The notes: generated by a model from the sequence alone, not told the origin. Shown: positions 7,588-55,808, numbered from the stretch's first letter. The stretch is 64,000 bases of DNA from a virus (IMGVR_UViG_3300002143_000172:95171-159170), one strand, 5' to 3'. Numbers and translations are program-made.

Positions 7588-8313
7588 TTAGTTCGTGAGT
7601 TTTTGTTTGAGTCCGCGCATACCAGTGGTGTAGTATTCGTTTACTTTGTCTAACCACTGACTTTGCCAGTGTTCAAACTCGTCGGGCCAAAGATCAAATT
7701 GCTGGTACTGTAAATCTCTGCTACACATGAACACATGACCTTCTTTTATGTTGGTACCGTAGACTTCATTGTGTGCTAAGATATATGCTATAAGTTGTAT
7801 TTTGTAATCACCAACCCATTCTTCTTTTTTAGGTTTGTTGGTTTGTTTATAATCGCATACGCTAGGATTGCCTTTATAAACACCCACTAAGTCAGTTGTG
7901 CCGCTGTATAGACCTGGAAAGTACAAACTTTGTTCCATTGCCCAAATTTCGGACATGTCAACAAGGCCTTTTTCAATAATAACATCGGCCATTTTGTTGG
8001 CTTGTATATGTACAGGATTGTTTCCAGGTTGACGCTGAACCCCGGCAATAAATCTTTCTAAATTGCCATGCATAGCAGTTCCTACACCAGCAGCCTCATT
8101 GGTGATTTGTTGAGCCTTGTCATGTCCTATCTTATCACGCCATGCGTTTAAGGAAGTCATGTCTTTGGTAGAACTTAGGATAGTGGTCACACTTGGTAGT
8201 GTTTCACCGTCGGGAGTTTGGTAAACTCTTTTACGAGTTACCGGATCATTTATTTGCTTACAGTTTTTATATTGGAATCGTTCAACGAACGGTGGAGGAG
8301 TATAAGTTTGCAT
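7588..8313 (-). CDS. PD-(D/E)XK exonuclease (Cas4/lambda-exo-like)
   Basis: LPSVTTIL, GTAMH, YSGTTDL, DYKQT, QLIAY motifs. Confidence 0.85.
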   Translation of the reverse strand: MQTYTPPPFVERFQYKNCKQINDPVTRKRVYQTPDGETLPSVTTILSSTKDMTSLNAWRDKIGHDKAQQITNEAAGVGTAMHGNLERFIAGVQRQPGNNPVHIQANKMADVIIEKGLVDMSEIWAMEQSLYFPGLYSGTTDLVGVYKGNPSVCDYKQTNKPKKEEWVGDYKIQLIAYILAHNEVYGTNIKEGHVFMCSRDLQYQQFDLWPDEFEHWQSQWLDKVNEYYTTGMRGLKQKLTN

Positions 8314-18824: not shown

Positions 18825-21800
18825 TTAGTCAAACCACGAAGTATCTGTATTCCACGCACCGTCTGTGAATACGGCTACTGCTAGACTTCTCCAATCTTCA
18901 GCCCGAAGATTATCATCAATTTGAAAAGGAATCCATGACTTGGGTCCTACAGTGTATCCGCCTTCACTGAAATACCTAACATTAGCAATATTGATATAGT
19001 GGTTATTAAGGCCTGCACCTTTGGGAACAAAATACATGATCTGTCCTTCCACACCGTCTGCCAAACTCCAACTGTCATCATTGCCATCAGCACTGACCAA
19101 CACTTGAACACTCTTGGTTAGGTCCAGTGCGGTTGATGTTTCACTACCTGCTCCACCTGTTTTTTCTATAGTAGAATGTTTAACTACCCCATCTAATGTT
19201 ATATCACCAGGTGCTGTTAAATCACCATCATTGCCAAAGTACCAAGTTTTCTCTGTGCTGTCCTCGCCTGACACAGTGATCGAGATCTGTTGATCACTGT
19301 AGATGTCGTTGGTGTGAGTGATTTCGCCTGTGCTGGCATCGTATTGCAGTATGCTGGTTCCTGCCGCTGCTCTAACTGGCTTGACTACAAAGGTATCTTC
19401 TACTGTATTTTCTAAAGCTGCGCCAGATGCATTAATTACAATTGAATTTGCGGCTTGATTTCCAAAACCTGCTAGATCACCTATGGCTATTGCTCTAGCG
19501 CCTTGATTACCGTTACCTGCCTGACGACCTATAGCAACTGCACTGAAGCCTTGAGTTGTTTGACCTGCTAGATAACCTACGGCTACTGCACTGTTGCCTT
19601 GTGAGGTTTCACCTGCCTGTGCACCTACAGCCACTGCTACCACGCTTTGTGAAGTTTCACCAGCTTGATCACCAATTGCTATTGCTTTTGAACTTTGAGT
19701 TGTTTCACCTGCTTGATCACCAATTGCTATTGCATTGGCACCTTGATTTGTTAAACCTGCACTAACACCAATGGCTACTGCCTTTATTCCTTGATTTGTT
19801 CTACCTGCACCCGAACCAAGTGCTACTGCTTCTGCGCCTTGAGTTGTTTGACCTGTAGTATATCCAATTGCTACTGCATAGCCGCTTTGAGTTGTTTCAC
19901 CTGCACTCTCGCCGATTGCTACTGCCGCAATGCCTTGAGTTGTTTTACCTGCATAAACACCAACTGCTACTGCTTCTGAGCCTTGTTGAGCTTGCCCAGC
20001 CGCGGCACCAACTGCTACTGCGTTTGCGCCTTGAGAAGTAGTACCAGCCGCAGAACCAATTGCTACTCCGCTTTCGCCTTGAGTTGTGTTACCAGCCGCA
20101 GAACCAATTGCTATCCCAAATTGGCCTTGAGTTGTGTTACCAGCCGCAACACCAATTGCTACTGCTTCTGAGCCTTGTGTTGTTTGACCTGCAAGATATC
20201 CAACTGCTACTCCGCTTTCGCCTTGAGTTGTATAACCAGCCGCAACACCAATTGCCACTGCACCTGCGCCTTGACTTGTTTCACCTGCCGTATTACCAAC
20301 TGCTACTGCACTTTCGCCTTGAGTATCATTGCCAGCCCGTTTGCCAACTGCTACTGCACTTGTGCCTTGACTTGTTGCACCTGCCCTATTACCAACTGCC
20401 GTCGCGTCTGCACCTTGATCTGATTGACCAGCAGAGACGCCAACTGCCGTTGCGTTTTCGCCTTGATCTTCATTACCTGCATACCAACCAATTGCTACTG
20501 CTTCTTCACCTTGAGTATCATAACCTGCACCCGAACCAATTGCTACTGCATCAACGCCTTGAGTTAAATAACCGGCTTCTTCTCCAATTGCTACTGCTGT
20601 TCGGCCTTGACTTGTTCGGCCTGCATCTTCTCCAATTGCTACTGCGCTTGTGCCTTGGGTTGTTTGGCCTGCACGTTGACCAATTGCTACTGCACGAGAG
20701 CCTTGAGTGTCACTACCTGCTGTGTAGCCTAATGCTATTGCAGTTTCCGATGTACGCAATCTCGCAGTCTCTACATCGCCAACGATTTTACCTGCCACAC
20801 CATCTACCAATAATGTGCTGCCATCACTGAACACTGAACCAGTGACATCACCATCCAGTGAAGTCTGCGGACCTGTGTAGGCAGTGGTCTGGACTGTATC
20901 ATCTGGGAAAGTTAAACTGGCATCTGTGCCAAATAGCCAACTATTAAGATTGTTCACATCAGCACTAGCAGCCAGTCGTACACCGTAACTGTCTATTGCT
21001 AGCTGTGAAGCACTAGTGGGTGTTGGATATGTATCTACCCAAGAAATACTGGCAAGTCCTGATCCCGAAACAAGCATGCCTGTTTGAGTATCTGCTGCTG
21101 CCACAATAAACTCTGGGCCAACACCATCTGGATTTCCAATTGACACAGTTCCACTTGGCAATGTCAACCCTCCAGTGTTTCCAAAATTCCAAGTGTAGTT
21201 ACTGCTGTCTTGATTATTGACTACGATATTAATATCATCATTGCCTGACACAGTACCACCAATGGGTAAGGTTAAACTACCAGATGTAGATAACGCAACA
21301 GTGTAAGTTCCGCTAATTAAGGTCGAAGTTGTAGCAGATCCGCTGCCTGCAACAGGACTTCCGTCAACAGTTAAATTGCCACCGCTAACGCTTAATGCTG
21401 TACCGCCTAAATAAATTGTACTAGTTCCCACATACAAACTACGCCATTGACTCGATGTTGATCCTAGATCGTAAGTTAAATCTGCGGCTGGTATAATATG
21501 CTCTGCTACAGCACTAAAATCTGGTGTAGCACCTGTTGGTCCTGTTGGACCAACTATACCACCATTTGATTGAAATTGGAAATATAAATCTTCTGCACTA
21601 GTTAATGCTACTTGATAATAAATCTTATGAATTAACGGATCGAAAGAAGTAATAAAATTAGGTGCGCCCGGGTCTAATATTCCGGATAATCCAGTATTCC
21701 CTGTCTTAGATACTAGGTCAATACTTGCCCAATTTGCATCAGGACTGTTTTGTAGTCCGCCATCTGCCATTAATCTATTATTTAAAACATACATAGCGGC

Positions 21801-22262
21801 AGGAATTTCTGTGAATCCTGTTAGTGTAAAAACAAGATATCCGTTGTTACTTAATCCTATTCCAGAACCGGCATCAAATGAACCAGTTAATGATCCGCTA
21901 ATTGTTGTAAATGTCCAACGATTTTCTGTATTACTGCCTCCAGCAGTTCGTTGTGCTCTTACTACAGAAACAATACCAGTACCTGTGTTCAAAGGACCAG
22001 TTGCACCGGTAGTTCCTACTGATCCCGGGTCTCCTTGTGGTCCAGTTGGTCCTGCAACACCCGGATCTCCTTGTGGACCAGTTGGACCTGCAACACCCGG
22101 GTCTCCCTGAACTCCTTGTGGTCCTGTTGGTCCTACTTCAATTGTAGAGAGCTGATCAATTATTTCACCAAAGTTATAATTGATCTTAGTAAAAGCAACT
22201 CGTAAACTGTCGCCGTTGCCTGCGTTTGGTCCTGAACCTGTATTGATATAGTAAATGGTCAT
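18825..22262 (-). CDS. Tail or capsid fibre adhesin with collagen and YadA-head-like repeats
   Basis: N-terminal INTGSGPN.G.GDSLR.AF.KIN module, GXY collagen tract, ~27 x 16-aa AVAIGxxAG repeats. Confidence 0.85.
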   Translation of the reverse strand: MTIYYINTGSGPNAGNGDSLRVAFTKINYNFGEIIDQLSTIEVGPTGPQGVQGDPGVAGPTGPQGDPGVAGPTGPQGDPGSVGTTGATGPLNTGTGIVSVVRAQRTAGGSNTENRWTFTTISGSLTGSFDAGSGIGLSNNGYLVFTLTGFTEIPAAMYVLNNRLMADGGLQNSPDANWASIDLVSKTGNTGLSGILDPGAPNFITSFDPLIHKIYYQVALTSAEDLYFQFQSNGGIVGPTGPTGATPDFSAVAEHIIPAADLTYDLGSTSSQWRSLYVGTSTIYLGGTALSVSGGNLTVDGSPVAGSGSATTSTLISGTYTVALSTSGSLTLPIGGTVSGNDDINIVVNNQDSSNYTWNFGNTGGLTLPSGTVSIGNPDGVGPEFIVAAADTQTGMLVSGSGLASISWVDTYPTPTSASQLAIDSYGVRLAASADVNNLNSWLFGTDASLTFPDDTVQTTAYTGPQTSLDGDVTGSVFSDGSTLLVDGVAGKIVGDVETARLRTSETAIALGYTAGSDTQGSRAVAIGQRAGQTTQGTSAVAIGEDAGRTSQGRTAVAIGEEAGYLTQGVDAVAIGSGAGYDTQGEEAVAIGWYAGNEDQGENATAVGVSAGQSDQGADATAVGNRAGATSQGTSAVAVGKRAGNDTQGESAVAVGNTAGETSQGAGAVAIGVAAGYTTQGESGVAVGYLAGQTTQGSEAVAIGVAAGNTTQGQFGIAIGSAAGNTTQGESGVAIGSAAGTTSQGANAVAVGAAAGQAQQGSEAVAVGVYAGKTTQGIAAVAIGESAGETTQSGYAVAIGYTTGQTTQGAEAVALGSGAGRTNQGIKAVAIGVSAGLTNQGANAIAIGDQAGETTQSSKAIAIGDQAGETSQSVVAVAVGAQAGETSQGNSAVAVGYLAGQTTQGFSAVAIGRQAGNGNQGARAIAIGDLAGFGNQAANSIVINASGAALENTVEDTFVVKPVRAAAGTSILQYDASTGEITHTNDIYSDQQISITVSGEDSTEKTWYFGNDGDLTAPGDITLDGVVKHSTIEKTGGAGSETSTALDLTKSVQVLVSADGNDDSWSLADGVEGQIMYFVPKGAGLNNHYINIANVRYFSEGGYTVGPKSWIPFQIDDNLRAEDWRSLAVAVFTDGAWNTDTSWFD
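19440..20745 (-). repeat. 48-bp-period coding tandem repeat (~27 units)
   Basis: QGxxAVA(I/V)GxxAGxT(T/S) periodicity. Confidence 0.9.
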
Positions 22263-22685: not shown

Positions 22686-23192
22686 ATGTCTTGTTTAATT
22701 TTAAATGCGGATGCCGCACCAGTAAGTATGCTTCCACTTAGCACAATCTCGTGGGAAGAATCGATTCGTTATCTAGTAACGGATAAAGCCACAGTTCTAG
22801 AATGGTACGAAGATTGGATCGTTCACAGTGAATACTGGGAAACTCGCGTTCCTGCGGTTATGATTCTTAGGGAATACCAAAAGAAGAAAACCACGGTCCG
22901 ATTCTCAAAACAAAATGTATTCCTGCGTGATGGATACTCTTGCCAATATTGTGGAGATGATGTTAGCCGTAAAACTGCTACATTGGACCATGTATTGCCA
23001 ACTAGTCACGGAGGAAAAACTGTTTGGGAAAACTGTGTTACTGCCTGTGCACCTTGTAATGCCCGAAAAGGTAACAACAAAAAGGTCGTACCTAAGATCA
23101 AACCATTTAAGCCAAGTTACTTCTATTTGGCCGATAAGCGTAAAAAGATGGCTTGGGAATTACAACACCCGAGCTGGGCCAACTATATATAA
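22686..23192 (+). CDS. HNH endonuclease (McrA-like)
   Basis: RDGYSCQYCG, TLDHVLP, GG...WENCVTACAPCNARKG. Confidence 0.92.
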   Translation: MSCLILNADAAPVSMLPLSTISWEESIRYLVTDKATVLEWYEDWIVHSEYWETRVPAVMILREYQKKKTTVRFSKQNVFLRDGYSCQYCGDDVSRKTATLDHVLPTSHGGKTVWENCVTACAPCNARKGNNKKVVPKIKPFKPSYFYLADKRKKMAWELQHPSWANYI

Positions 23193-23239: not shown

Positions 23240-23458
23240 TTATTTTTCTCGGTACACTATACGACCTTTGGTTAGATCGTATGGACTCATTTCGAGTTTA
23301 ACTCGATCGCCCATTAATATTTGAATTTTATTTTGGCGCATTCTGCCACTTATGTGACCAAGGATCGTAGATCCTTGTTCTAGCTTTACCCGAAACATTG
23401 CGTTGGGTAACACTTCTTCAACCCTGCCTTCTAGGTTGATCATATCTTCTTTTGCCAC
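23240..23458 (-). CDS. infA: Translation initiation factor IF-1
   Basis: [26 protein letters not shown]...[13 protein letters not shown]; 72 aa. Confidence 0.97.
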
Positions 23459-25081: not shown

Positions 25082-25405
25082 TTATACCGAAAAACTAGAC
25101 CCGCATCCACAGGTACTTTGGGCATTTGGATTTTTAATAGTAAACTGACTGCCCATAAGATCGTCAGTAAAATCCACTGTTGCACCCTGCAGATATTGCA
25201 TACTCATAGCATCAACGAGCAAGGTCATTCCGGGCCGTTCGACTGCAAAGTCATCTTCGCCCTGTTCTTCATCAAAAGTAAATCCATAACTAAATCCGCT
25301 ACATCCGCCACCTTGGACGAATGTTCGAAGTTTTAATTTTGGATTATTTTCTTCTGCTAATAGGTCTGCAATTTTTGCAATTGCACTTTCTGTAAGTTCA
25401 ATCAT
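25082..25405 (-). CDS. erpA: A-type Fe-S carrier, ErpA-like
   Basis: [21 protein letters not shown]...[14 protein letters not shown]. Confidence 0.92.
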
Positions 25406-25728
25406 ATTCTAAAACTTTCTCCACAACCGCATCGGTCTCGTTCGTTTGGGTTAACAAAATCAAAACCTTCGTTAAGACCTTTTTTAACCCAATCCACTGT
25501 TAGTCCTTCTAGGTAAACATGAGACCTTCCATCTACCCAAACTGTTACTCCGTAGCTTTCATATTTGAATTGATCCCTAGTAACTGGTGTATGATCAACA
25601 TATTCTAATGTATAGGCCAATCCACTGCATCCAGTAGTTTTAACACCAAGGCGTATGCCCAGGCCTTTGCCTCTATGTGCTAACTGTTGTTGGACCTTAG
25701 TGGCCGCTTGTTCAGTTAGTGAGATCAT
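25402..25728 (-). CDS. iscA: A-type Fe-S carrier IscA
   Basis: [16 protein letters not shown]...[12 protein letters not shown]...CGCGESF. Confidence 0.93.
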
Positions 25729-27118
25729 GTCTTTCTCTGTAGTCTTTTATTGCCGCTTTGATAGCATCTTCTGCTAGTATTGAACAATGTATTTTAACTG
25801 GCGGTAGGGCGAGCTCTTCAGCAATCTCTGAATTCTTAATGCTTCCTGCTTGGTCAAGAGTTTTACCTTTGACCCATTCAGTAACAAGACTGGAACTGGC
25901 AATAGCTGAACCACAATTGTGTGAACCGACTCTATTAGAGAAAAACACATGAGCACCATCCTCCAATTTTAAATCATAAACTACGACTAATTTGCCATCT
26001 CTTTCACATCCACGCAATTGATTTTGATGAGTTATCGCTGAAATGCCTACGATTTCCATTCCATTGTGAATAAAATTCTGCACTTCTGGTAATGATTGTG
26101 CAATATCTTCTACTGCTAAAAATAACGAGTCGTATCCGGCTGTGGCCAATTGCTTACGCCGGTTGGCCACATAATTTGATTCCTCAGACCGATCCTGCAT
26201 AAATTTCGGCATCTGCTTTGTATATACTTCTATACATTTTTTCTTGCCAGGCACAATAAAGTCCGGACTTGCTGGACCAGATTCCGTCTGAATCCATATC
26301 TTGCCAGCACTCCATCTTACAGCTACATTGTTTTCTTCAAATAAACTGATGTATTTTTGTTCAATACTAGTAGGTTTAGTCCAATCTCGTTGTGCCATTC
26401 CCTGTTGCCATTTTTCAATGTATGCTAGATTTGACCAATTTTTAACTGAGGCTGCACTTGAACGCTTCTTTTTAGTTGCTAAATCTTTACACACATACCC
26501 AGGTTGATTTTGTGGTAATACCGAGTGGTCAAACTCCTTATTCCATGCTGTCATTCTGACACTATTTTTTTGTTTAAGTGTAGTACAATGTCTGTTGTTA
26601 GTAAGAATCCTTAGTTCGTGTTCAGTTATCTCATATAACTCTTGTCCTACTTGTAGCTGTTGCGCTTCGATTGGCTTGTTATTGGCATTCCAAAATATAT
26701 GTTCCTTAGTACAAATTAATGAAAAAGTTCCAGGATTAATATTTTGTCTACTAGTTTCTCTTTGAAATGTAATTACTAACAAATCATCCACTTCGACCGA
26801 ATGTTTAATAATATCTCGCACTTTTTGCGGATGAATAGTATTTCCATCCCACGCTAACACTTCATCACCAACGACTAACGATGATATCTTTTTTCTATTA
26901 GTTGGTGTATTCACTGGCATATTGCTTGTTAGACACCCATATGTTTTAAATTTTGCGTCTTTGATAATTCCATCTTCTACTCTAATCTGTAATTTCATTA
27001 CATCGCCACAAGCAGGTGCGCCCACCATTCCTGTGCCAACATCGGGATCATCTTTTTGGAAAGATCCTGCATTTCTAGGATTTTCATAATGATCAAGTAC
27101 CTTGTCTGAATATGCCAT
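25712..27118 (-). CDS. iscU: Fe-S scaffold IscU precursor containing an intein (128-aa spliced product)
   Basis: MAYSDKVLDHYENPRN, APACGD, FKTYG|CGSAIASSS, LPPVKIHCS. Confidence 0.95.
   Translation of the reverse strand: MAYSDKVLDHYENPRNAGSFQKDDPDVGTGMVGAPACGDVMKLQIRVEDGIIKDAKFKTYGCLTSNMPVNTPTNRKKISSLVVGDEVLAWDGNTIHPQKVRDIIKHSVEVDDLLVITFQRETSRQNINPGTFSLICTKEHIFWNANNKPIEAQQLQVGQELYEITEHELRILTNNRHCTTLKQKNSVRMTAWNKEFDHSVLPQNQPGYVCKDLATKKKRSSAASVKNWSNLAYIEKWQQGMAQRDWTKPTSIEQKYISLFEENNVAVRWSAGKIWIQTESGPASPDFIVPGKKKCIEVYTKQMPKFMQDRSEESNYVANRRKQLATAGYDSLFLAVEDIAQSLPEVQNFIHNGMEIVGISAITHQNQLRGCERDGKLVVVYDLKLEDGAHVFFSNRVGSHNCGSAIASSSLVTEWVKGKTLDQAGSIKNSEIAEELALPPVKIHCSILAEDAIKAAIKDYRERHDLTN
25916..26935 (-). 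mobile_element. Intein (340 aa) with central endonuclease-like domain
   Basis: Block A CLTSNMPV, block B CTKEH (TxxH), block F VVYDLKLEDGAHVFF, terminal SHN followed by +1 Cys. Confidence 0.93.
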
Positions 27119-27128
27119 AATATGTGTG

Positions 27129-27371
27129 CTAAGAGGTGCCTATTTTAATTTTTTTTACAAACTCGATAACTTCTTTAACTGTTTGTAATTGTTCTGAATC
27201 GTCATCTGGAATTTCTATCTCTAATACTTCTTCCAAATTCATTATTAATTCAACTTTGTCCAGAGAATCTGCACCAAGGTCATTTGTTAAGTTACTATCA
27301 TCTGTTACTTGCTCTATCTTAACACCTAACTGTTCGGCTATGATTTTCTTTACTTGTTCTTCAATAAGCAT
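27129..27371 (-). CDS. acpP: Acyl carrier protein
   Basis: [18 protein letters not shown] phosphopantetheine Ser. Confidence 0.93.
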
Positions 27372-32271: not shown

Positions 32272-32692
32272 CGTCAGTCTCCTGTTTACTCCAACTAATT
32301 TCCCAATCTTTCCATTCTGCGGCCAGGCAGTCGACTTTATAATCCTTGCGACCGCCGACTACTTCTTGGATTTTATTCTTAGCAGTATTTCGGATACCAT
32401 TAAGCCCGTGTGTTAGTTCTAAGTTGTTGCCATCTTTAACACCACGACGGTAATTAGACTCGTTGTGCCAGATATGCAAATTCATCTGTGATACTACAAC
32501 GATAGCGCGAATAGTGTCTGCTGTAATATTCCCGGCCGCTTCGTCTAAAATGATTTGGATATCGTGTACGATATCTGCTATCTCTGTAGAATATTCATCT
32601 TTATGTTCTGAAATAAACACTTCTTTAAGTTGAACAATGCTCAGGCGATCAATTAGATCCCCAAGAGTATGTAGATATTTTCGTTCGCTCAT
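32258..32692 (-). CDS. Hypothetical helical protein
   Basis: LGDLIDRLSIVQLKE...IWHNE...N.IR...K..I pattern. Confidence 0.55.
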   Translation of the reverse strand: MSERKYLHTLGDLIDRLSIVQLKEVFISEHKDEYSTEIADIVHDIQIILDEAAGNITADTIRAIVVVSQMNLHIWHNESNYRRGVKDGNNLELTHGLNGIRNTAKNKIQEVVGGRKDYKVDCLAAEWKDWEISWSKQETDDGVK

Positions 32693-33630
32693 AAGTTTGT
32701 AAAGCTCCTGTTGTTATGGGTGATAATAAATTGGTAAGCATCGATCAATTGTGCGATACCGTAGTCTAAGTCGTATAACGGGCGCCAACTCAGATTTTCA
32801 ATCTTTTCATTTGATACGATGTAATTTCTTTTATCAAAATCTTCTTTAAATTCGTCCTGCTTGATCACTAACTTGGGAAGATGTTCTTTAATCTTTTCAG
32901 CTAGTTCCAATTTACTTAGGTTTGCAGAACTCAATCCTACATTATACGCCTGTCCTTTACATTGGTCATAATTCCTAATCATGAACTCAAATGTTTGGGC
33001 AATATCCTGCACATGAATATAGTTGCGTTTGAAATGCGCTTCGAACAACACTAGGTAACCATCAGTAACTGATTTATAAACAAAGTCGTTGACTAATAAA
33101 TCTTGTCGCATCCTTGGACTTACACCAAAAACTGTAGCAAGTCGCATTGCTATTCCGTTGCCTCTACTCAACACTACATCTTCAGCATCGCATTTAGTTT
33201 TAGCATAGTGCGACAGAGGCTTGAAAGGACTTGATTCGGTAATAATCTGATCCGATGATCCGTACTGACTGTTAGTATTTGGTACAAGGATTTTTTGATC
33301 TCGACCTAATACTGACACAATGTTTGCAATGTGTTGAAAATTTACATCTGTTGCTAATTGCGGATTAGCTTTACATGCAGGCATTCCTACTATGGCAGCT
33401 AATGGGATAATAACATCATGTACTTTTGCCTGTTCAAGTAGGCGTTCAGTATCTCTAACATCACCAAGTATAAACTTAAAGCCTTGTCTCTTAAATAGGT
33501 GAAGCATTGATAACTGTTTATACATCAAATTATCAAAAACAGTTACATGGTATCCCTTATCGAGTAGATACTCTGTTAGTGTAGAACCTAGATAACCTGC
33601 GCCGCCTGTGATTAGTACTTTCATATCCAT
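32689..33630 (-). CDS. NAD-dependent NDP-sugar epimerase/dehydratase
   Basis: TGGAGYLG, YAKTK, RLATVFGVSPRMR. Confidence 0.92.
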   Translation of the reverse strand: MDMKVLITGGAGYLGSTLTEYLLDKGYHVTVFDNLMYKQLSMLHLFKRQGFKFILGDVRDTERLLEQAKVHDVIIPLAAIVGMPACKANPQLATDVNFQHIANIVSVLGRDQKILVPNTNSQYGSSDQIITESSPFKPLSHYAKTKCDAEDVVLSRGNGIAMRLATVFGVSPRMRQDLLVNDFVYKSVTDGYLVLFEAHFKRNYIHVQDIAQTFEFMIRNYDQCKGQAYNVGLSSANLSKLELAEKIKEHLPKLVIKQDEFKEDFDKRNYIVSNEKIENLSWRPLYDLDYGIAQLIDAYQFIITHNNRSFTNL

Positions 33631-34295
33631 CCTAATTTTTCTATGTGTGATTTTAATTCATTTGCCATGTAACGATGCCCGAACTCACTGAAGTGGCAGG
33701 TGTCATTTTCTCTAAGGTTATATTTGGGATCGCTGTGCGTATCCTCAGATATTTGGCTAGGTTGAAAATAATCAATTACATAATTTGATATTAAGTTACT
33801 TCTAGTTGTGTTCAAGAAAATAGTTCTTATCTTATGATTCTTTAACATCTGCTGAAAGTTATAATTGTTAACCCTAAACTCTTCTTCTGAAAATCTAGGA
33901 CTCACAAAATACTGCTCAAACTCTTTAAGGAATTGCTTCTCTTCATCATGTGGTTGCCATGTATGTGCCGCAGGCTTCCATCTAATTACTCGACCTCCAT
34001 CATGCGACAGATCTGCGGGAGGGGCTGTGTACTTCGGTCCAGGATCCGGTAAAGCACTCCAAAATTCATTTCTAACTATTTCTGTATACTGTATAACAAC
34101 TACATCTTCTTCTGTGATAGTTTTATCTAAAATATGGTTAGTTATCCTTCTCCATATTCTAAAATTACTCCCGGCGCCAGCACCTTCGTGGAGGTAGTCA
34201 ACGCCAAGATCGGTAGCAAGTATTTTACCATACGGCAAGTCAACATCAGTATAGTCACTGACGCTACACCCTGCTACACATAGTTTTCTAATCAC
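33621..34295 (-). CDS. SGNH/GDSL-like protein
   Basis: VAGCSVSD, GAGSN, terminal DTCHF..GH. Confidence 0.55.
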   Translation of the reverse strand: MIRKLCVAGCSVSDYTDVDLPYGKILATDLGVDYLHEGAGAGSNFRIWRRITNHILDKTITEEDVVVIQYTEIVRNEFWSALPDPGPKYTAPPADLSHDGGRVIRWKPAAHTWQPHDEEKQFLKEFEQYFVSPRFSEEEFRVNNYNFQQMLKNHKIRTIFLNTTRSNLISNYVIDYFQPSQISEDTHSDPKYNLRENDTCHFSEFGHRYMANELKSHIEKLGWI

Positions 34296-35260
34296 TTAAA
34301 CTCGTCCTTGTTAGCTAGGTACCAATTATATGCTTTTAGTAAGCCTTCTTCTAACGGAGTAGTTGCTTCCCAACCTAGTGCATCTTTAATCTTGTTAGAG
34401 TCAATGCGGCGAGTAGGAATCATGCTAGGCTTACCCTTAACATACTCAATAGGATTAGTATTGTTTACTAACTGTTTCATTATAGATAATACATCATTAA
34501 CAGAGTAAACATTGTTGCATCCTACATTGAATACATCATATGTTTCTTGTTTTTCAATTACTAATTGTAGCGCCTGAATGAAGTCGTCAACGAACAACAA
34601 ATCTCGCAACTCAGTACCGTCACCCCATACTGGAATAGGATTCATATTGTCTGCTACTTTACGGATAGTTGCAGGTGTTACATGACACTTAGCAAAGTCG
34701 TATTTGTCATGAGGACCAAATAGGTTAGCAGGACGAATAACAACTGTAGTCATTGGATTGGGCAAATACTTTGCATACAACTCGCATTGTACTTCTGCAT
34801 ATCGTTTCATCCATCCTACTGGAAAGTACACAGGGTAAGGCTCATCAAACAAGAAGTCTGTTTCAACTACTGGCTCATCGCCCTTAGGAGGATATACTGT
34901 ATTGCTACTAATAAAGATATACTTGCTAACTTTGTTACGATACGCACTATCGATCAAGAAGTTGTTCATAGCCACATTTGGTGTAACATGAGCAAGAGGG
35001 TCCTGAACTGTGTCAACTGCGTTACTGGTACTTGCGGCCGCGTGTACTACAACATCTACATCTTTAGTAACAGCTAGGCAATCTTCATAAGTCATTAAGT
35101 TTCCACTAACATAATCTACAATGTCGTGTTTAATACGAGGCTGTCGAGTATGTAGGTGTACACGGATATTAGTATACCCGTCTGCCACTAATTTGTTTGT
35201 AAGATTTTGACCAACTAGGCCAGAACCTCCAGTAATTAAAATTCTCTTATCTTTTAACAT
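34292..35260 (-). CDS. GDP-L-fucose synthase-like epimerase/reductase
   Basis: TGGSGLVG, RPANLFGPHD, VWGDGTELRDLLFVDD; start at MLKDKR. Confidence 0.85.
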   Translation of the reverse strand: MLKDKRILITGGSGLVGQNLTNKLVADGYTNIRVHLHTRQPRIKHDIVDYVSGNLMTYEDCLAVTKDVDVVVHAAASTSNAVDTVQDPLAHVTPNVAMNNFLIDSAYRNKVSKYIFISSNTVYPPKGDEPVVETDFLFDEPYPVYFPVGWMKRYAEVQCELYAKYLPNPMTTVVIRPANLFGPHDKYDFAKCHVTPATIRKVADNMNPIPVWGDGTELRDLLFVDDFIQALQLVIEKQETYDVFNVGCNNVYSVNDVLSIMKQLVNNTNPIEYVKGKPSMIPTRRIDSNKIKDALGWEATTPLEEGLLKAYNWYLANKDEFK

Positions 35261-35960
35261 TATTTTCCTTAATTTCGTCTTTGTTATATAAAAATGCCAA
35301 GTAACAATATCTTTTGAAGTCACCTGTAACACGATTCACAGTGTGCCACGGGTTATGCTCTTTGAAATCCAATATTACATAATTACCTTTTATTGGTGGT
35401 ACTGTTACATGATCTTGGGCGGACATATTTTGGTCTTCACCCTGAAGTACTAGTTCCCCGCCATTATTGTCATATCCATCGGACTCACTCATGTAGATTA
35501 AGACGGCAGCAATTCTACCAAGATTCTTTCCATCTCGGTGTTTATCTATAAAATCTCCATTTTGGTAAAGAGTAAAATAATCTCGAAATTCTAGATTAGA
35601 ATGTTCGGAGTTAATTTCAGGATAGAAATTTCGAATAAACCCTTTAACAATACCTCTAAAATGAGATAAGGGATCAAATGCAGATCTATTAGCAATCTGA
35701 AACCACTGCTGGCTAACTTGCCTTGAATGTTCCTTGATTTTTTCTCTGCGGGTCTCAATCATCGAAATCGGAATCGTCATTGGCCAGTCTGGGTCATTGT
35801 GCGTTCCTATTATACAGTTATGGTAAAATGCTGTATCATCCTGTATCGGAAGATTTTTTATCATAGTAGACATTGTGTCAAACTCCGGCATATCTGATTC
35901 TCTAACAATCTCAGTAAGGTCGCCTACATAAAATCCCCGTTCTTTTAAACTATCATTCAT
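35247..35960 (-). CDS. 2OG-Fe(II) oxygenase
   Basis: HRD (HxD), GGEL, WHTV, R. Confidence 0.85.
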   Translation of the reverse strand: MNDSLKERGFYVGDLTEIVRESDMPEFDTMSTMIKNLPIQDDTAFYHNCIIGTHNDPDWPMTIPISMIETRREKIKEHSRQVSQQWFQIANRSAFDPLSHFRGIVKGFIRNFYPEINSEHSNLEFRDYFTLYQNGDFIDKHRDGKNLGRIAAVLIYMSESDGYDNNGGELVLQGEDQNMSAQDHVTVPPIKGNYVILDFKEHNPWHTVNRVTGDFKRYCYLAFLYNKDEIKENNVKR

Positions 35961-36940
35961 TTTTTAGATCCATATGCAGAAACTACTTTGAGTATCCCGT
36001 CTTTAAGACTAGTACTAGGTAGTATGTTATATTTCTTTTGCTTTTCTGCGCCCAGACATCTTAGCATATCACCGTTAGGTTTTGTTTCGTCCCAAACAAT
36101 CGTTTTAGTTTTTCCCGTAACTTCTGCATAGGCAGCAACGATTGCTTCTATTGTTTCTTTAATGGTAACTGCTTTGCCACAGCCAAAGTTAATTACATCA
36201 TTAACTTCTTTCTTTACAACATCAACAACCGCTTGGGCAACATCATCTCCAAATACAAAGTCTCTGCGGGCAGAACCATTACCCCAACATACAATTTCAT
36301 CACCGTCAGTATTAAACACTTTCCATACATTGGCACCGATAACTGTTGCTTCTTGAGAGAAGTTATCTTTTATTCCGTAAATGTTAGCAGGCCGCATAAT
36401 AGTCCACTTAGTCCAATCGTGCTGTATCCGCAAAGAGTCTATTGCTAACTCGCCCATACGCTTGGCCCAGCCCGGATGCCAATCATTCTTACTGGGCATA
36501 GTATCCCATACTGTATCTTCGTGCATCACATCGGCAGGTTGATAAACACCAACCGACGACATGTAAACGAACCAATCAACTTTAGCATCAAACGATGCTT
36601 TGATCATATTAGTATTAAACATCATCATTGGAAATAGATAATCAGCGGGTTGCTTGGCAGCTCTAGATGGGCTCCCTTTAATACCAGCAATGTGTAATAC
36701 TACATCAACTTTGTTTCCGGTAAACAAAGTTTGACAGTTATTAAGATATGTTAAATCTTTTTCAATAAGTGTAAGTTTACCCAACGGATATTGTTTTCTC
36801 AGAGCTACTAGATCATCACTAATCTTAATGTCTACTGCGATTACTTCTAGGGCACCCTCGTCTAGACATTTGATCACTGTGGGGTTGCCCACTAATCCAC
36901 TAGCACCTGTTATTAATATTCGTTTATCTTTAATTTCCAT
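35957..36940 (-). CDS. GDP-L-fucose synthase-like epimerase/reductase
   Basis: TGASGLVG, RPANIYG..DNF, WGNGSARRDFVF, KPNG. Confidence 0.85.
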   Translation of the reverse strand: MEIKDKRILITGASGLVGNPTVIKCLDEGALEVIAVDIKISDDLVALRKQYPLGKLTLIEKDLTYLNNCQTLFTGNKVDVVLHIAGIKGSPSRAAKQPADYLFPMMMFNTNMIKASFDAKVDWFVYMSSVGVYQPADVMHEDTVWDTMPSKNDWHPGWAKRMGELAIDSLRIQHDWTKWTIMRPANIYGIKDNFSQEATVIGANVWKVFNTDGDEIVCWGNGSARRDFVFGDDVAQAVVDVVKKEVNDVINFGCGKAVTIKETIEAIVAAYAEVTGKTKTIVWDETKPNGDMLRCLGAEKQKKYNILPSTSLKDGILKVVSAYGSKK

Positions 36941-38342
36941 AATTAGCCTCAAAAAAATCTGTCAACGGATTGTAGTTCTTAAAAGCTAAGAATTGCCGTT
37001 GATTGTGCTTTGTTATCTCTTGAACAGAATAGTAAAAATCATGTACCTGTTCTAATGACATGTTAGCAAATCTTACAATTTCTTTTTCTATTAGAGCAAG
37101 CCTCTTCTTTGGATCTTGTTCTAAGTCATAACTTTCATCAATGAACGGATGAAATGTTTTATATCCTAGTCTACGAAGTTCTTCGAGTGCTTTATAATTT
37201 CCTATGTATATAAACGGTTGTAAGTTTAATATAGGTCTAAAAGTCTTCTCAGTCATAAACGGACTGCCCGATGCATCAAACTGCGTTTCTGATACTATAT
37301 GTATGTAACTATCTTCGTACAATTCTTTTTTGTTATTTTCGTTAGACTGAAATCCCATTTTTCCATCAGGAGTTAAGTCCTGGGTGTCTACTTCATAGGG
37401 CATAAGATTTACAATGGTATCCACTGCCTCTGTTAATTCTTCGCTAGTCCCATCAACAAGTTCACCTAATGCACCTACTGGATCATCATTTGGTAAAGAA
37501 TGTATGAAACTAAAGATTCCGTCTTTAAGTAAATTGTGCTTTAAGGCTAGGTAAAAGATTGCTACTCTATGTGGCCTGTTCATAGCACGATTCCAGCAGA
37601 TAAACTTTTTAGATCTAAGTTTAGCTGTGTCTAGATCTGTTTCTCTTACATAGTCGCAGAGATACCCTAGTGAACTTCTTTCAATTGGATATCGACTTGC
37701 AATTTCTGCTTGCTGTTGCATCGAGGCGTGTGCAGTTCCGAGTCTTGCACGACCTTGATAATCTGTTCTAAAGTTTCCCTGAAGTAAATTTACATCGGTT
37801 CCGGGTACTCCTATTTTAACAAAGGCATTTTCAACATTCAATAGCGTATTTTTATCATATGACGGTTCTGTGCCATTGAACAGAATAGGTTTTACCTTAC
37901 CGGTCTTTAACAATTCTAATAAACGAGGGCCCAGTGTGTCTGCATAAGAATAGGTGCTGATTGTCCCATCTATGTTAAAATCAAAGTTATCGTATATGTA
38001 ACCTAAATTTCCTCTGTCTAATTCGTAGGGCAGGAAGTAGGTAATATCGTCAGTTTCGTTGACCTCGTCTATTCCTACTATACTATCTTCTCCATAGTGC
38101 TTTTTAAAAAAATATAAAAGACTGCAATGCTGAAATACAACACCCGATCCTTTGGAGAAATACTCTTTTTCTAATTCCCAAATACGGCAATATTGATTGC
38201 CGTTAAACGATAATTCTTTTTCGGACGCTTCTTTTTGCATCCATGCGACCACGGACGGATGCAGGCCATTTGCTATAGGGAGGCGGGCATTTGTTAATTG
38301 CACCCAATCTTGATATACAAGTTTAAATTTTAAATCTGACAT
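36930..38342 (-). CDS. Glycosyltransferase-like protein (GT10-like C-terminus)
   Basis: FICWNR..RPHR, IVSET, TEKTFRPILNLQPF. Confidence 0.55.
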   Translation of the reverse strand: MSDLKFKLVYQDWVQLTNARLPIANGLHPSVVAWMQKEASEKELSFNGNQYCRIWELEKEYFSKGSGVVFQHCSLLYFFKKHYGEDSIVGIDEVNETDDITYFLPYELDRGNLGYIYDNFDFNIDGTISTYSYADTLGPRLLELLKTGKVKPILFNGTEPSYDKNTLLNVENAFVKIGVPGTDVNLLQGNFRTDYQGRARLGTAHASMQQQAEIASRYPIERSSLGYLCDYVRETDLDTAKLRSKKFICWNRAMNRPHRVAIFYLALKHNLLKDGIFSFIHSLPNDDPVGALGELVDGTSEELTEAVDTIVNLMPYEVDTQDLTPDGKMGFQSNENNKKELYEDSYIHIVSETQFDASGSPFMTEKTFRPILNLQPFIYIGNYKALEELRRLGYKTFHPFIDESYDLEQDPKKRLALIEKEIVRFANMSLEQVHDFYYSVQEITKHNQRQFLAFKNYNPLTDFFEANYGN

Positions 38343-39625
38343 AATTCTTTCAATGGATTAAAGTTCTTAAAAGAGTGTAGATGTTTCTGATTATGGATTA
38401 ATCGATCTTTAATAGAATAGTACCAATTGTGTATTTCTTTTAAGGATAGATTATTAAATTTTACAATTTCTCGTTCGATAAGTTGAAATCTCTTTCTAGG
38501 ATCAACTTCTAAATCATAACTTTCATCAATAAACGGATGAAAAGTTTTAAATCCTAACTCTTTAATCTTATTTAATGCTAGGGTATTACCCACATGAATA
38601 AACGGTTGCAGATTTAAAATAGGTCTCCAAGTCTTCTCACTCATAAATGGTGTCCCGGGTTGATCAAACTCGGTTTCCGATACAATGTGTAGATACGAAT
38701 CTAGATACAGCTCTTTCTTGTTATTTGTAACGGTAAAGAATCGTCCCAATTCTTCATATTCTAAATGATGTGTATCAAGTTGATACGGTAATAGACTATC
38801 AATTTTCTCTGCATAGCTGTTGTCGTCGTCTACTATCCTAGCTAAGAGATCTTTAGTGTTGTCTTCTGGACTATATAAGAAACTAAAAAATCCATCATCG
38901 AGTAAATTATGTTTTAGTGCTAAGTAGCAAAGACCTAGTCGATGGGGCCTGTTCATATATCTGTTCCAACAGATAAACTTCTTGGTCCTCTGTGTAAGAT
39001 CGTTGAGATCTTCAATCCTTACAAAATCACTTTCATATCCCAGTGCTGTAGGGTAGGGGTACTTGTCCATTTCATTTGCAGTTTGGTATAAAGATATGAC
39101 AGATTCTAGCATCTGCATTGATGAATTGTGCTCCTTTATATTTCCCTGCATCATAATTACTTTCTCAATCCCCTGCTTGTTAAAAAACTTTTCAATTTCT
39201 TTAATAGTTCCTGGTTCTGCAGAAGGATCGATCATGTTTACCAACAAGATGCCAACTTTTCCCGATCGTAAGTGCTCTAGCATCTTAGGAGATAGAGTTT
39301 CAATGAAATTATAATTTGGTTGGGTATCGGTGATATAGTGAACTGTGTTACATTCAATCTCTATAGGAAATAGGTATGTTCCTTCTTCATCTATTTCATC
39401 ATCACTGACCATTGGTATGTTTTCTCTAGCACTATGATAAAAAAAGTTACTGTGTCTAAAATAGTAAGTAGATGTGGGATCGTTAAAAAAATAACGAGTA
39501 TCTATTTCTTTGAGATGTGAGCTAGCCCACTCGCGAAACTCTTTGGTAAGTCCGTTGGGAAATGGACGGAGTTCATTATCTATCTCGTACCAATTTGAAT
39601 AAACCAGTTTTAAAATGCGATCCAT
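38330..39625 (-). CDS. Glycosyltransferase-like protein (GT10-like C-terminus)
   Basis: FICWNR..RPHR, IVSET, SEKTWRPILNLQPF. Confidence 0.55.
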   Translation of the reverse strand: MDRILKLVYSNWYEIDNELRPFPNGLTKEFREWASSHLKEIDTRYFFNDPTSTYYFRHSNFFYHSARENIPMVSDDEIDEEGTYLFPIEIECNTVHYITDTQPNYNFIETLSPKMLEHLRSGKVGILLVNMIDPSAEPGTIKEIEKFFNKQGIEKVIMMQGNIKEHNSSMQMLESVISLYQTANEMDKYPYPTALGYESDFVRIEDLNDLTQRTKKFICWNRYMNRPHRLGLCYLALKHNLLDDGFFSFLYSPEDNTKDLLARIVDDDNSYAEKIDSLLPYQLDTHHLEYEELGRFFTVTNNKKELYLDSYLHIVSETEFDQPGTPFMSEKTWRPILNLQPFIHVGNTLALNKIKELGFKTFHPFIDESYDLEVDPRKRFQLIEREIVKFNNLSLKEIHNWYYSIKDRLIHNQKHLHSFKNFNPLKELCQI

Positions 39626-40239
39626 TTTCCAGAGCCATAATGGGGGTACTTAGATTTATATTCGTAGTGTATTACATCTGCAGGTATTTCTCTTTTCTTT
39701 GCCCATGTTGCTTCCGTAGGAGTGTATGTCGACACTCCGTTATCCTCTACTACAAAATACAATGGTAAATCAAAGTTCCTAGCATATTTGTGTGCTTCAT
39801 AAAAGGCTCCGGTCTCAAAACTCATATCACCCACAAAGACCCAAACCTTGTCAGTGCTACCGCTGTTCTTTAGAGATAACGCAACTCCAAGAGCGATAGG
39901 AAGGGTAGCGGTAACGATCGCACTACTGTAAAACTTTTCGTCAATATTGCAAAGGGTGATAGACTTTCCGGCAAGGATTTCATCCTCAATCCAGGTTGGA
40001 TCGATACCTTTGAGGAACGCATGATAATGACTACGCCATGTTGAGAATACCCAATCGGTTGTTTTTATTCTTTTAAAAATTTCAATAAGCTGTTCTTCGT
40101 TACCGTTAGATAAGTGAACTGGTCCCCTTATCTTTGCCGCTTCCCAATGACTAACTATTAGTTCTTCAAACGCTATTAAATCATCGCTTGAATGGGCAAT
40201 GTCTCGTTGTATTGTATATTGGTCAATATTTTGTATCAT
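39610..40239 (-). CDS. ThDP enzyme alpha-like subunit (E1 dehydrogenase family)
   Basis: HLSNGNE, STWRSH, ThDP motif GDMSFETG...EDN. Confidence 0.88.
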   Translation of the reverse strand: MIQNIDQYTIQRDIAHSSDDLIAFEELIVSHWEAAKIRGPVHLSNGNEEQLIEIFKRIKTTDWVFSTWRSHYHAFLKGIDPTWIEDEILAGKSITLCNIDEKFYSSAIVTATLPIALGVALSLKNSGSTDKVWVFVGDMSFETGAFYEAHKYARNFDLPLYFVVEDNGVSTYTPTEATWAKKREIPADVIHYEYKSKYPHYGSGKWIAF

Positions 40240-40781
40240 CTGTCTCTCTTTTGTAGTATTGGTTTGTCAGTTGGCCATTCAATGTTAAACTTGGGATCAT
40301 TCCACTTGACGACCCCTTGCCTGTTTTCATCTACATAGTCACCTTCGTAGAACAAGTTATAATGAAATATGCAATCTGTAAGGGCAAAGTGCCCGTTCGC
40401 AAATCCCGGAGGAACTAATACTTGATCTCTGGTACGCTCACTAATAATGTAGGATTCCCATTTTCCATAAGTTGGACTACCTGCTCTAACATCTAGCACA
40501 ACCAAATAGATTTCTCCTACTAGTGCTTGTACCAGTTTCCATGTTTTATCATCGTAGTGTAGTCCACGAAGCACTCCCTTGTATGATCTAGAAAACCTAC
40601 CATGTATATTAACTTCTTTTGGTAGTAGGTCGTGTATAGGATGATCAACAGAATGATATGTAGTAAATATCTCTCCTCTGTATTCTCTATAGACACTAGG
40701 AGAGTAAACAGGTACTTCTGTGTTAAAAGACCTTAAGTGTGCAACATCAAAATTATTCCATGCTTTATTCTTATAACTCAT
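40236..40781 (-). CDS. rmlC: dTDP-4-dehydrorhamnose 3,5-epimerase
   Basis: GVLRGLHY, KLV, DVRAGSPTYGKW, VPPGFANG, WNDP...IEWP. Confidence 0.9.
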   Translation of the reverse strand: MSYKNKAWNNFDVAHLRSFNTEVPVYSPSVYREYRGEIFTTYHSVDHPIHDLLPKEVNIHGRFSRSYKGVLRGLHYDDKTWKLVQALVGEIYLVVLDVRAGSPTYGKWESYIISERTRDQVLVPPGFANGHFALTDCIFHYNLFYEGDYVDENRQGVVKWNDPKFNIEWPTDKPILQKRDR

Positions 40782-42217
40782 AATCGTGTTTTTCCAAATA
40801 GGTAGCCAATAAATTTGGCACTGTGCGGTTCGTTGCGATAGATGTCAAGTAATTTATAATGATTGTGGATTAGGATATCCTCCATACTCCAATACCAATT
40901 ATGTATTTCTTCTTGGCTCATAGCACATAACCGCTTAACCTCATCAGCAATCATCATCATCCGTTTTGTATTATCGGGTTCTGTGTCATAGCTTTCATTA
41001 ATGAATCCATCGAATGTTTTAAACCCCAAACTCCTTAGTTCTTGAAGTGCGCCCGGAAACGATAAGAATAAGAAAGGATTAAAATTTGCCACAGCTTTAA
41101 ATACCTTCTCAGTCATAGATTTATATACACCGTGTACATAAGTTTCGGTAGCAACATAAAAATAAGAATTTAAGTTATGTTTGCTATGTTGATCTCCCCA
41201 ACCACTAACGGAAAAATAATTACTTCCCGGTTCATCTTTAAGACTGTGCGGGATCTGTTCATGCAGTTGTTTAACAACTTCCATATTATAGCCTAATGGA
41301 AAAGAATTAGCCCTTGCATAACTTTCTTCAAAGGATACAGGATCATGGCACGACCAGTCTGCTTTATCTAGTAGCCCTTCCGACGCAAACTTATACAGCA
41401 GGGCAAGCCTGTGGTCTCTTGCACGGCGTATGGGCATTAGAAAATAGTTAGGTCGTATGGTATTCTTTGAGGATTTAAATATTTCTTCGTTCAATCTTAT
41501 ATCTGGATTATTGTCGTAGTACCAAGAGATCTGACATAGTATGTAAGGTAAGTTTCTAACTTCTAATAATCGGTGTTCGGGACTGAACCAATTCTCATAT
41601 ACTTCTTGGGCATTAAAACTATTAACTGATAGCACGATGCTTTCTTTTGGAATTCCACTATAGCGTATTCCTTCATGCAGATTTTGGTAATCACCTTGCT
41701 CAATAAAGTTTTCGTTGGCCCAATCTAAGAATACGATTGCATCTCCCTTACGAAGGTCTTTAAGAACAGACTCACTTATGTGTTTCCAGAAGTATTCGCC
41801 GTTTAACTTACTGCCGACATTATCTCTGCCAGTACATCTAGGAAAATGTAAAGTTAGTTTAATTGGGTACACATACCGTCTAAAGCCGTCACGATGAAGA
41901 TTCCTTCTGCCAAAGTAAACGCTGTTCTCGTAAATCTGTACGCTAGGGTGATAACATCTATTACGCAAATAGGATCCATTCATACCTAGACTGTTGGGCA
42001 TATCCCCAAGTCCTTTTCCAAACATCTGCTTAAATGGGCTGTCCTCTTTCTCTGTATGCTCATCAAAGAAACTTTCAGTAGTTAATCTATCTGAGAATTG
42101 CGTGTGGATGTAATTTACAACTCCCATTTCAATAGGAAGGGCGTTGGGCATGACTGTATTTGGTAAAATATAATCATAGAAGAAAGGTAGAACTGGTTTT
42201 TTAGAATTATTGTACAT
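40778..42217 (-). CDS. Glycosyltransferase-like protein (GT10-like C-terminus)
   Basis: RDHR, VATET, TEKVFKAVANFNPF, GFKTF...ESYD. Confidence 0.55.
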   Translation of the reverse strand: MYNNSKKPVLPFFYDYILPNTVMPNALPIEMGVVNYIHTQFSDRLTTESFFDEHTEKEDSPFKQMFGKGLGDMPNSLGMNGSYLRNRCYHPSVQIYENSVYFGRRNLHRDGFRRYVYPIKLTLHFPRCTGRDNVGSKLNGEYFWKHISESVLKDLRKGDAIVFLDWANENFIEQGDYQNLHEGIRYSGIPKESIVLSVNSFNAQEVYENWFSPEHRLLEVRNLPYILCQISWYYDNNPDIRLNEEIFKSSKNTIRPNYFLMPIRRARDHRLALLYKFASEGLLDKADWSCHDPVSFEESYARANSFPLGYNMEVVKQLHEQIPHSLKDEPGSNYFSVSGWGDQHSKHNLNSYFYVATETYVHGVYKSMTEKVFKAVANFNPFLFLSFPGALQELRSLGFKTFDGFINESYDTEPDNTKRMMMIADEVKRLCAMSQEEIHNWYWSMEDILIHNHYKLLDIYRNEPHSAKFIGYLFGKTRL

Positions 42218-42229: not shown

Positions 42230-42979
42230 TTATATGCTACTATTATTTAAGTGAAATGAATACAGCTCATCGGCAAACATTAAATGCGGCTGCTCATCGT
42301 GGTGCCAATATTGTGCTTTGGAGTTAGTAAATCCTAAATTTCGATACTTCCAATAGAATGATTGATCGTTGTCTGTTGCGTTAAGATAGCGAGTGTTATC
42401 TATTAAGTCTAGATAAACTTGTATATGCTTATTGTTAGTAAACATGTGCATGGTATTGCACATTAGGTAATCAATCTTGTTTAATTTAAAGAAGTATTGC
42501 ATTTGAAGGACTGTAGACGCACTGATAGTTTCTAAATAGATTTGATTAAAAGGATCTACCATAAAATTATGACACCTCTCAATCATTTCCTGTTCTTCTT
42601 TAAAAGTGCCCTTGTACCCAAAGTTAACTCTAAAAAAATCTCTAGATGCCTCGGATAGAAAATCACTTGCTGGGTTCCATTCCTCGTAATGGGTAGGGCG
42701 GGCGTTGGGGATTTCCATGCGAGAACTCTCCGACCATGCCACTAGCACCATAAGGTCCATATTATCATGATAACACTTTGAGTACCACTCTAGAACAGTA
42801 CGGGCCATGCCTTGATTACTTGACCCACTTAGGGCAATGTTAACAGCCCGACGACCCAACTTTTCAGCCAATACATTTCCAAAACTATGCTGTCTATTGT
42901 ATGCACTATCCTGTGAGCCATCTATTTCAGATCCGGCGGCATTACTACATCCCGTAATTAATAATACCCTGTCTTTCAT
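42230..42979 (-). CDS. SGNH/GDSL-like protein
   Basis: ITGCSNAAG, SGSSN, terminal WHH...H. Confidence 0.55.
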   Translation of the reverse strand: MKDRVLLITGCSNAAGSEIDGSQDSAYNRQHSFGNVLAEKLGRRAVNIALSGSSNQGMARTVLEWYSKCYHDNMDLMVLVAWSESSRMEIPNARPTHYEEWNPASDFLSEASRDFFRVNFGYKGTFKEEQEMIERCHNFMVDPFNQIYLETISASTVLQMQYFFKLNKIDYLMCNTMHMFTNNKHIQVYLDLIDNTRYLNATDNDQSFYWKYRNLGFTNSKAQYWHHDEQPHLMFADELYSFHLNNSSI

Positions 42980-45201: not shown

Positions 45202-45205
45202 TCAA

Positions 45206-47418: not shown

Positions 47419-47420
47419 AA

Positions 47421-54711: not shown

Positions 54712-54801
54712 AGCTTATAGTTTTCCTACTGAAGTTTCCTTAATTCGTATTTAGCCACAATTTTTTTAACACTAACTTGTCTGAGATTAAATACATACAT
54801 A

Positions 54802-55566: not shown

Positions 55567-55570
55567 TAGG

Positions 55571-55599
55571 TTGACTTATGGTATTACCTATGTTATACT
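55571..55599 (+). promoter_or_regulatory. Sigma70 promoter
   Basis: TTGACT-17-TATACT with extended TG. Confidence 0.7.
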
Positions 55600-55632
55600 T
55601 AATAAACACACAGAGAACTAGGAGTATTAAAC

Positions 55633-55794: not shown

Positions 55795-55808
55795 CTTAGG
55801 AATATAAT

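Follow-up and report, generated by a model that had tools for sequence, protein, structure and literature searches.

Vsr-like endonucleases have been described from 'fractured genes', and at the time of that description none was known inside an intein (Dassa et al. 2009, PMC2677866). A 2025 survey of actinophages reported Vsr-like nucleases only in association with split inteins or in antisense orientation. The reference structure for comparison is I-Bth0305I, a homing endonuclease of the EDxHD family (PDB 3R3P; Taylor et al. 2011, PMC3239194). Inteins are also known in proteins that assemble or depend on iron–sulfur (Fe-S) clusters. Conditional splicing has been proposed for the intein of the Fe-S assembly protein SufB of M. 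tuberculosis (PMC8891592), and a redox trap has been described for the intein of MoaA, a radical SAM enzyme of P. abyssi (reviewed in PMC10663303). Phages that carry sets of iscU, carrier, and radical SAM genes have already been described, with inteins unmentioned (Nishimura et al. 2017, PMC5332604).

The locus analyzed here lies in a window of 64 kb, which is the last part of a 159-kb IMG/VR virus record judged to be ~44% complete; all coordinates refer to the window. The source is a large uncultivated jumbo phage that has its own auxiliary Fe-S scaffold gene, iscU. The gene and all of its parts discussed below are on the minus strand. It spans positions 25712–27118 and encodes a precursor of 468 aa that consists of an N-extein, an intein, and a C-extein followed by the stop codon. 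Pfam NifU_N matches this ORF with an E value of 1.3e-48 and the NCBIfam iscU equivalog model TIGR01999 scores 206.6 bits (cutoff 192.4), in both cases in two stretches on either side of an insert (precursor residues 1–65 and ~385–464). The N-extein (26936–27118; IscU residues 1–61) includes Cys37 and Asp39 in the motif APACGD, ends in FKTYG, and aligns with residues 1–62 of solved IscU (1Q48, 2L4X). The C-extein and stop codon (25712–25915; equivalent to IscU residues 63–128) include His105-Cys106 in KIHCS. Alignment of the C-extein begins at residue 63 of the solved proteins and therefore the residue that follows the insert, encoded by the first C-extein codon (25913–25915), is the cluster ligand Cys63. 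The ligands Cys37, Cys63, and Cys106, as well as Asp39 and His105, are all present and intact in the exteins, according to this alignment and to the established numbering of E. coli and H. influenzae IscU. Removal of the insert from the 468-aa precursor leaves an IscU of 128 aa with Cys63 as the +1 residue. A first-pass annotation of this DNA had proposed such a clean product, which is borne out by the alignment to 1Q48 and 2L4X, and had placed an insert of 340 aa between FKTYG and CGSAIAS; the insert is exactly 340 aa, or 1,020 nt, at 25916–26935.

On the strength of its sequence, the insert is a genuine canonical class 1 intein (Cys1 ... His339-Asn340) and is predicted to splice. It is delimited by its presence as a 1,020-nt insertion relative to the DNA of related phage contigs (L002 and L004), and is recognizable by conservation and by fold. 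Conservation and Foldseek define the N-lobe of the Hint domain (intein residues 1–104; 26624–26935), with block A (Cys1) and block B, the latter reading T76-K-E-H79 (T76xxH79; 26699–26710). Conservation and the model define the C-lobe (residues 294–340; 25916–26056), with blocks F (VYD321L) and G (GSH339N340). Across an alignment of 52 relatives with identities down to ~21%, C1, H79, H339, and N340 never vary and T76 is retained at 90% or above. The junctions, FKT[YF]G/C ... HN/CGSA with slashes marking the splice points, are kept in 119 of 120 close homologs. The first-pass annotation had listed all splicing blocks as present, and C1, T76-K-E-H79, D321 in block F, and H339-N340 followed by Cys were each found.

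The fold of the intein is consistent with this assignment. An AlphaFold (AF2) model built on the alignment of relatives has a mean pLDDT of 85, and a Foldseek search with it returned 22 matches at E ≤ 0.001, nearly all to inteins or other Hint domains. The best was gp41-1 (6QAZ; E 3.4e-5), and DnaB and RecA inteins were also among the matches. Like the IscU intein, gp41-1 is a class 1 splicing domain of the Cys1/Cys+1 type from an environmental phage. But whereas gp41-1 is a mini-intein that is naturally split and belongs to a helicase, the IscU intein is contiguous and has a nuclease in frame. Direct searches with the intein alone were weak, with only sub-threshold matches to Hint families in Pfam, NCBIfam, and PHROGs, and only chance matches to sugar-binding proteins when phmmer was run against PDB sequences. 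Relatives and profiles were therefore needed to identify the family, and relatives of the intein exceed the threshold of Pfam PF14890 (Intein_splicing). A bacterial intein-like or pretoxin-Hint domain was considered and rejected on account of the canonical C1/HN/C+1 residues and the clean extein.

Alternatively, the insert could be a nonsplicing sequence or an assembly artifact, in which case iscU would be a pseudogene. This is extremely improbable, given that the 1,020-nt insert is in frame and free of stop codons, that the splicing residues are all intact, and that, across more than 100 independent metagenome clusters, both the exteins and the intein show purifying selection. Extein identity and dN/dS were computed from a codon alignment; all parts of the intein have dN/dS values of 0.05–0.14, which indicate purifying selection but are rough figures because synonymous sites are saturated.

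Between the two Hint lobes are a basic helical region (intein residues 105–185; 26381–26623; dN/dS ~0.14), with helices modeled at pLDDT 59–90, and a domain with the Vsr/I-Bth0305I-like PD-(D/E)XK nuclease fold (residues 186–293; 26057–26380; dN/dS ~0.085), assigned by fold and profile matches. The helices are presumed to form a DNA-binding module and, by analogy to the N-terminal part of I-Bth0305I, probably bind DNA. Within the nuclease domain, E192 in PTSIE (26360–26362), D225 in PDF (26261–26263), K233 (26237–26239), and E236 in IEVY (26228–26230) are invariant in the intein alignment. A profile (A4) made from the central region of the intein and free-standing nuclease homologs was run against the whole PDB sequence set, and its two best matches were I-Bth0305I (3R3P; E 2.2e-4) and Vsr (1CW0; E 7.6e-3). 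A separate model of intein residues 104–300 (pLDDT 89.6) was compared with 48,161 representative chains. The top match was again I-Bth0305I (3r3p_B; Z 10.2, rmsd 2.8, 92 residues), followed by 3HRL (3hrl_A; Z 9.2), Vsr (1cw0_A; Z 8.8), and further PD-(D/E)XK nucleases. Foldseek agrees with a Vsr-like fold and ranks 3R3P second. Neither LAGLIDADG_3 nor HNH domains were found between the Hint lobes by Pfam, NCBIfam, or PHROG, and a nuclease of either type was rejected because of this and because the fold search yielded PD-(D/E)XK nucleases only. The intein has no match to the DUF559/Vsr family PF04480 even at E ≤ 1; a free-standing relative of the nuclease (P0196) is just above the cutoff of that family (21.2 vs 20.6 bits).

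The nuclease deviates from its closest structural matches at a catalytic position. In the HMM alignment, the IEV strand of the intein nuclease lines up with the IEV of 3R3P, and the column of I-Bth0305I H213 (Ala in the crystallized mutant) holds Pro243. No conserved histidine occurs in the nuclease domain across the 52 relatives and the G..WH segment is absent. The first reading of this region as not LAGLIDADG but Vsr/DUF559-like without G..WH was thus right, as judged from the 3R3P and Vsr fold matches and from Pro243 in the histidine column. H213 is the general base of I-Bth0305I, and because the histidine general base of Vsr/EDxHD enzymes is absent, the chemistry of the intein nuclease is uncertain. 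Instead of the EDxHD histidine, the domain has the invariant Lys233, which the enzyme possibly uses in catalysis. We treat this putative nuclease as a distinct branch: it shares its fold and acidic residues with the EDxHD/Vsr clade yet lacks the histidine. The fold, the helix-borne Glu, the PD-Asp, and the extra acidic residue in the IEV strand are shared with I-Bth0305I and the nucleases of fractured genes, and like I-Bth0305I, it is a phage-borne putative homing nuclease with an N-terminal helical part. Unlike those nucleases, it is encoded in frame within a contiguous intein rather than as a free-standing ORF between the halves of a split intein, within an intron, or in antisense.

The intein is polymorphic among closely related phages. 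Intein-less alleles of 128 aa (P0262–P0267) are 94–96% identical to the spliced extein. Contigs L002–L004 have the same gene order as the window and ~95% DNA identity to it, and their iscU is intein-less in the same operon; the intein is dispensable, since these nearest phage relatives do without it. Compared to the DNA of L002 and L004, the intein is a clean insertion between the Gly61 codon (GGN) and the Cys codon (TGY). The first-pass annotation had suggested looking for iscU alleles with and without the insert, and a scan of IMG/VR uncovered 17 viral loci with the intein and ~60 without. On a tree of extein DNA, intein-plus alleles are scattered, with at least nine changes of state, at least five of which are forced by well-supported branches, and the extein of the window is sister to intein-less alleles (support 99). 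At the protein level, the allele in P0003 differs from that of the window at none of 340 intein residues and at 10 of 124 extein residues, hence the intein is younger than its exteins.

Patterns of DNA identity around the intein are mosaic. An 840-nt block of the intein (25919–26758) is 93–100% identical to phage locus L005, in flanks that are 55–85% identical: ~70% in general, 80–85% immediately after 25919, and 55–70% further downstream. Relative to the intein-less allele of L004, which is otherwise ~95% identical, the C-extein has a divergent tract that begins exactly at the intein junction (25763–25915; 43 mismatches in the first 153 nt, vs 2 in the last 48). Its first 30 nt have 15 mismatches, all synonymous, compared with 43 of 354 elsewhere in the extein (Fisher p 2e-6). 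In the N-extein, there is no mismatch to L004 within 75 nt of the junction except at the third base of Gly61. The divergent tract looks like a co-converted flank from a diverged donor. The 30 nt of C-flank in the window show no significantly greater similarity to intein-plus alleles than to intein-less alleles in general (Mann–Whitney p 0.08), and no donor can be named. The mosaics prove that the element recombines, not that its own nuclease initiates the recombination. Alleles with altered inteins, as read from their sequences, show what would be other stages of a homing cycle: P0126 has a mini-intein at Cys63 from which the nuclease is cleanly deleted and P0133 has a full intein with a divergent nuclease. 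In addition, three metagenome proteins (P0131, P0136, and P0173) each have two mini-inteins, one before Cys37 (GAPA/C ... HN/CGDV) and one before Cys63, thus two of the three cluster ligands are +1 nucleophiles in a single protein.

We consider it very likely that the intein is a selfish homing element, which splices out to leave IscU normal and passes between co-infecting phages by means of its Vsr-like nuclease. According to this model, the Hint domain of the 468-aa precursor would fold, Cys1 would form a thioester, and the +1 Cys (Cys63) would then accept the N-extein. Cyclization of Asn340 would release native IscU of 128 aa and a free intein of 340 aa. The helical DNA-binding region and the Vsr-like nuclease would together act as a homing endonuclease that cuts the intein-less iscU of co-infecting related phages, and recombinational repair would copy the intein and some of the flanking extein into the cut allele. 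Selfish homing would account for the intein-less relatives, the patchy tree, and the mosaics with no need of a regulatory role.

Movement of the intein could also be passive. If the nuclease were dead or repurposed, the intein would be a nonhoming resident that is moved by general phage recombination and kept only because imprecise loss would destroy IscU. The missing EDxHD/Vsr histidine, the survival of nuclease-free mini-inteins in other alleles, and the free recombination that occurs among phages in any case are all in keeping with such a resident. But E192, D225, K233, and E236 are invariant across inteins in at least six host proteins at 21–40% identity, dN/dS of the nuclease domain is low at ~0.085, free-standing genes of the same nuclease type exist, and the breakpoints of recombination hug the element. 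We therefore regard passive movement as unlikely and favor selfish homing.

The intein belongs to a wider family. Among 1.84 billion representative proteins searched, 131 were relatives, and the same combination of intein and nuclease is also present in radical SAM, transglutaminase-like, DegT aminotransferase, NrdD, and family-B polymerase proteins. The same type of nuclease also occurs as free-standing proteins of 200–300 aa. In the radical SAM relatives, whose junction is CxxxCxx/C ... HN/CDT, the +1 position falls on the third Cys of the CX3CX2C motif. Several of these proteins (P0158, P0181, P0185, P0209, and others) are QueE-like radical SAM enzymes with the CDT motif; like the MoaA redox trap, they have an extein Cys at −3, and their +1 residue is the third ligand of the 4Fe-4S cluster. 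Intein-plus IscU was verified in at least 119 metagenome clusters, among the best 120 of 905 matches that were inspected.

In the phage GenBank collection, tblastn with the intein had no match, and the sole blastn match of the region was 153 nt of NifU in phage C48C1. Intein-containing IscU was absent among the best 80 cellular matches in a pattern search of 185,579 species genomes. A second intein of this family was not found in the rest of the 159-kb record, which says little because the record is a fragment and ~44% complete. The cellular IscU proteins nearest to the phage extein (L084–L163) are mostly those of freshwater Burkholderiales, such as Rhodoferax, Limnohabitans, Hydrogenophaga, and Polaromonas, which suggests a host group and a lake origin for the phage. 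The viral IscU proteins described by Nishimura et al. (2017) group with proteobacterial homologs. In the literature searched, no paper joins an intein with IscU or NifU as host protein, no Vsr-like nuclease is reported in frame inside an intein, and nucleases of the Vsr/I-Bth0305I type are reported only beside split inteins, in introns, or in antisense. The claim of novelty made at first pass thus holds in that no IscU intein appears in the searched literature, but the allele is abundant in metagenomes. The kind of intein is known; what is new is that a contiguous intein located at an Fe-S ligand Cys has an in-frame Vsr-like nuclease that lacks the histidine.

The genes around iscU are arranged in an operon-like array. 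Directly upstream is a gene encoding an acyl carrier protein (27129–27371, minus strand; PP-binding, E 7e-15), and directly downstream are two genes encoding A-type, IscA-like Fe-S carriers (25082–25728, minus strand; Fe-S_biosyn, E 2e-18 and 3e-20), the first of which overlaps the end of iscU. Small ORFs vary within this array. In L002 and L003, an extra ORF of 63 aa (7810–8001) separates the acyl carrier protein gene from iscU and is absent from the window (27119–27128), and in the P0003 contig, another ORF of 63 aa is located between iscU and iscA. Five consecutive radical SAM genes (42976–50019, minus strand) are located 16–24 kb from iscU; one encodes a B12-binding protein of 741 aa and two encode proteins with an N-terminal SPASM-like domain. 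The run is flanked by several genes for NAD-dependent epimerase/dehydratases (32689–36952) and one for a 2OG-Fe(II) oxygenase (35247–35960). The radical SAM and epimerase region looks like a large cluster for sugar or cofactor modification. Four ORFs of 431–479 aa in the same cluster (36930–42217 and 50000–51436, minus strand) have no Pfam match at E 0.05. No cysteine desulfurase (PF00266) was found in the 159-kb record, a result that says little for a fragment of ~44% completeness. In having iscU, IscA-type carriers, and several radical SAM genes, this phage resembles the large tailed phages of Nishimura et al. (2017).

Elsewhere, the window also encodes a ribonucleotide reductase (RNR), an exonuclease, an RNA ligase, an ATP-dependent DNA ligase, a cell-wall hydrolase, and a collagen-like protein. 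The last, of 1,145 aa (18825–22262, minus strand), has collagen triple-helix repeats and is probably a fiber; its homolog in L004 exceeds 2,282 aa. A gene for a phage IF1/eIF-1A-like S1 protein of 72 aa (23240–23458, minus strand) adjoins a free-standing HNH endonuclease gene (22686–23192, plus strand). In L002 and L003, a methyltransferase gene (259 aa) is inserted between the two, making this spot an indel hotspot. From 54000 to 64000, G+C content rises from ~0.37 to 0.43–0.50 and the coding strand switches to plus, and this end block is compositionally distinct.

A rival reading, put forward in the first-pass annotation, is that the intein has been co-opted as a sensor of redox or metal state. 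In this case, a disulfide between Cys1 and Cys+1, or Zn or Fe bound to the ligand cysteines, would keep IscU as an inactive precursor, and the hold would time the supply of Fe-S clusters to the phage radical SAM enzymes. Conditional splicing of this sort is chemically plausible, as the two nucleophiles are cysteines and the one at +1 also ligates metal, and the five radical SAM genes are 16–24 kb away. Relatives of the intein occupy Cys37 of IscU and the third cysteine of the CX3CX2C motif in radical SAM enzymes, and there are precedents in the redox trap of P. abyssi MoaA (PMC10663303) and in M. tuberculosis SufB (PMC8891592). Conversely, iscU is free of the intein in the nearest phage relatives, where it occupies the same operon, showing the intein to be dispensable, and its distribution is patchy and mosaic as expected of a selfish element. 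The −3 residue is Thr and there is no N-extein Cys like that at −3 in the MoaA trap. Moreover, conserved cysteines are the expected landing sites of Cys-dependent inteins, so the position of the intein is by itself no evidence of function. The present data lend gating no support, and we think it improbable that splicing is gated in this phage.

The SufB and MoaA inteins, for which conditional splicing has been proposed, resemble the IscU intein in that the host protein assembles or depends on Fe-S clusters and the nucleophiles are Cys. The IscU intein differs from both in its host protein, in a site where the Cys63 ligand is the +1 residue, and in its type of nuclease; SufB has a LAGLIDADG-type intein. 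The IscU intein is also viral, polymorphic, and recombining. A broader version holds that, across the intein lineage at Cys37, Cys63, and the third Cys of radical SAM enzymes, splicing varies with the metal or redox state in which the ligand Cys is found. We give this little credence. If true, maturation of the Fe-S scaffold of the phage and of its client enzymes would await conditions in which the infected cell is able to load clusters. A second speculative possibility is that the putative nuclease, if tolerant of sequence differences, may also cut the iscU of the host, where the protein sequence at the site is identical.

The selfish homing intein proposed here brings IscU, the central Fe-S scaffold, into the set of proteins in which inteins are known, and its splice nucleophile is at the same time a ligand of the cluster. 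It is, in addition, a contiguous intein with an in-frame putative homing nuclease that has the Vsr/I-Bth0305I fold and lacks the histidine of the family. Because intein-plus, intein-less, mini-intein, and double-intein alleles occur in closely related phages, they constitute a natural test bed for asking whether splicing at metal-ligand cysteines is conditional and how a histidine-less Vsr-like nuclease would cut DNA. Should it prove merely selfish, the intein would remain a clear-cut case of a homing cycle in progress among uncultivated jumbo phages.
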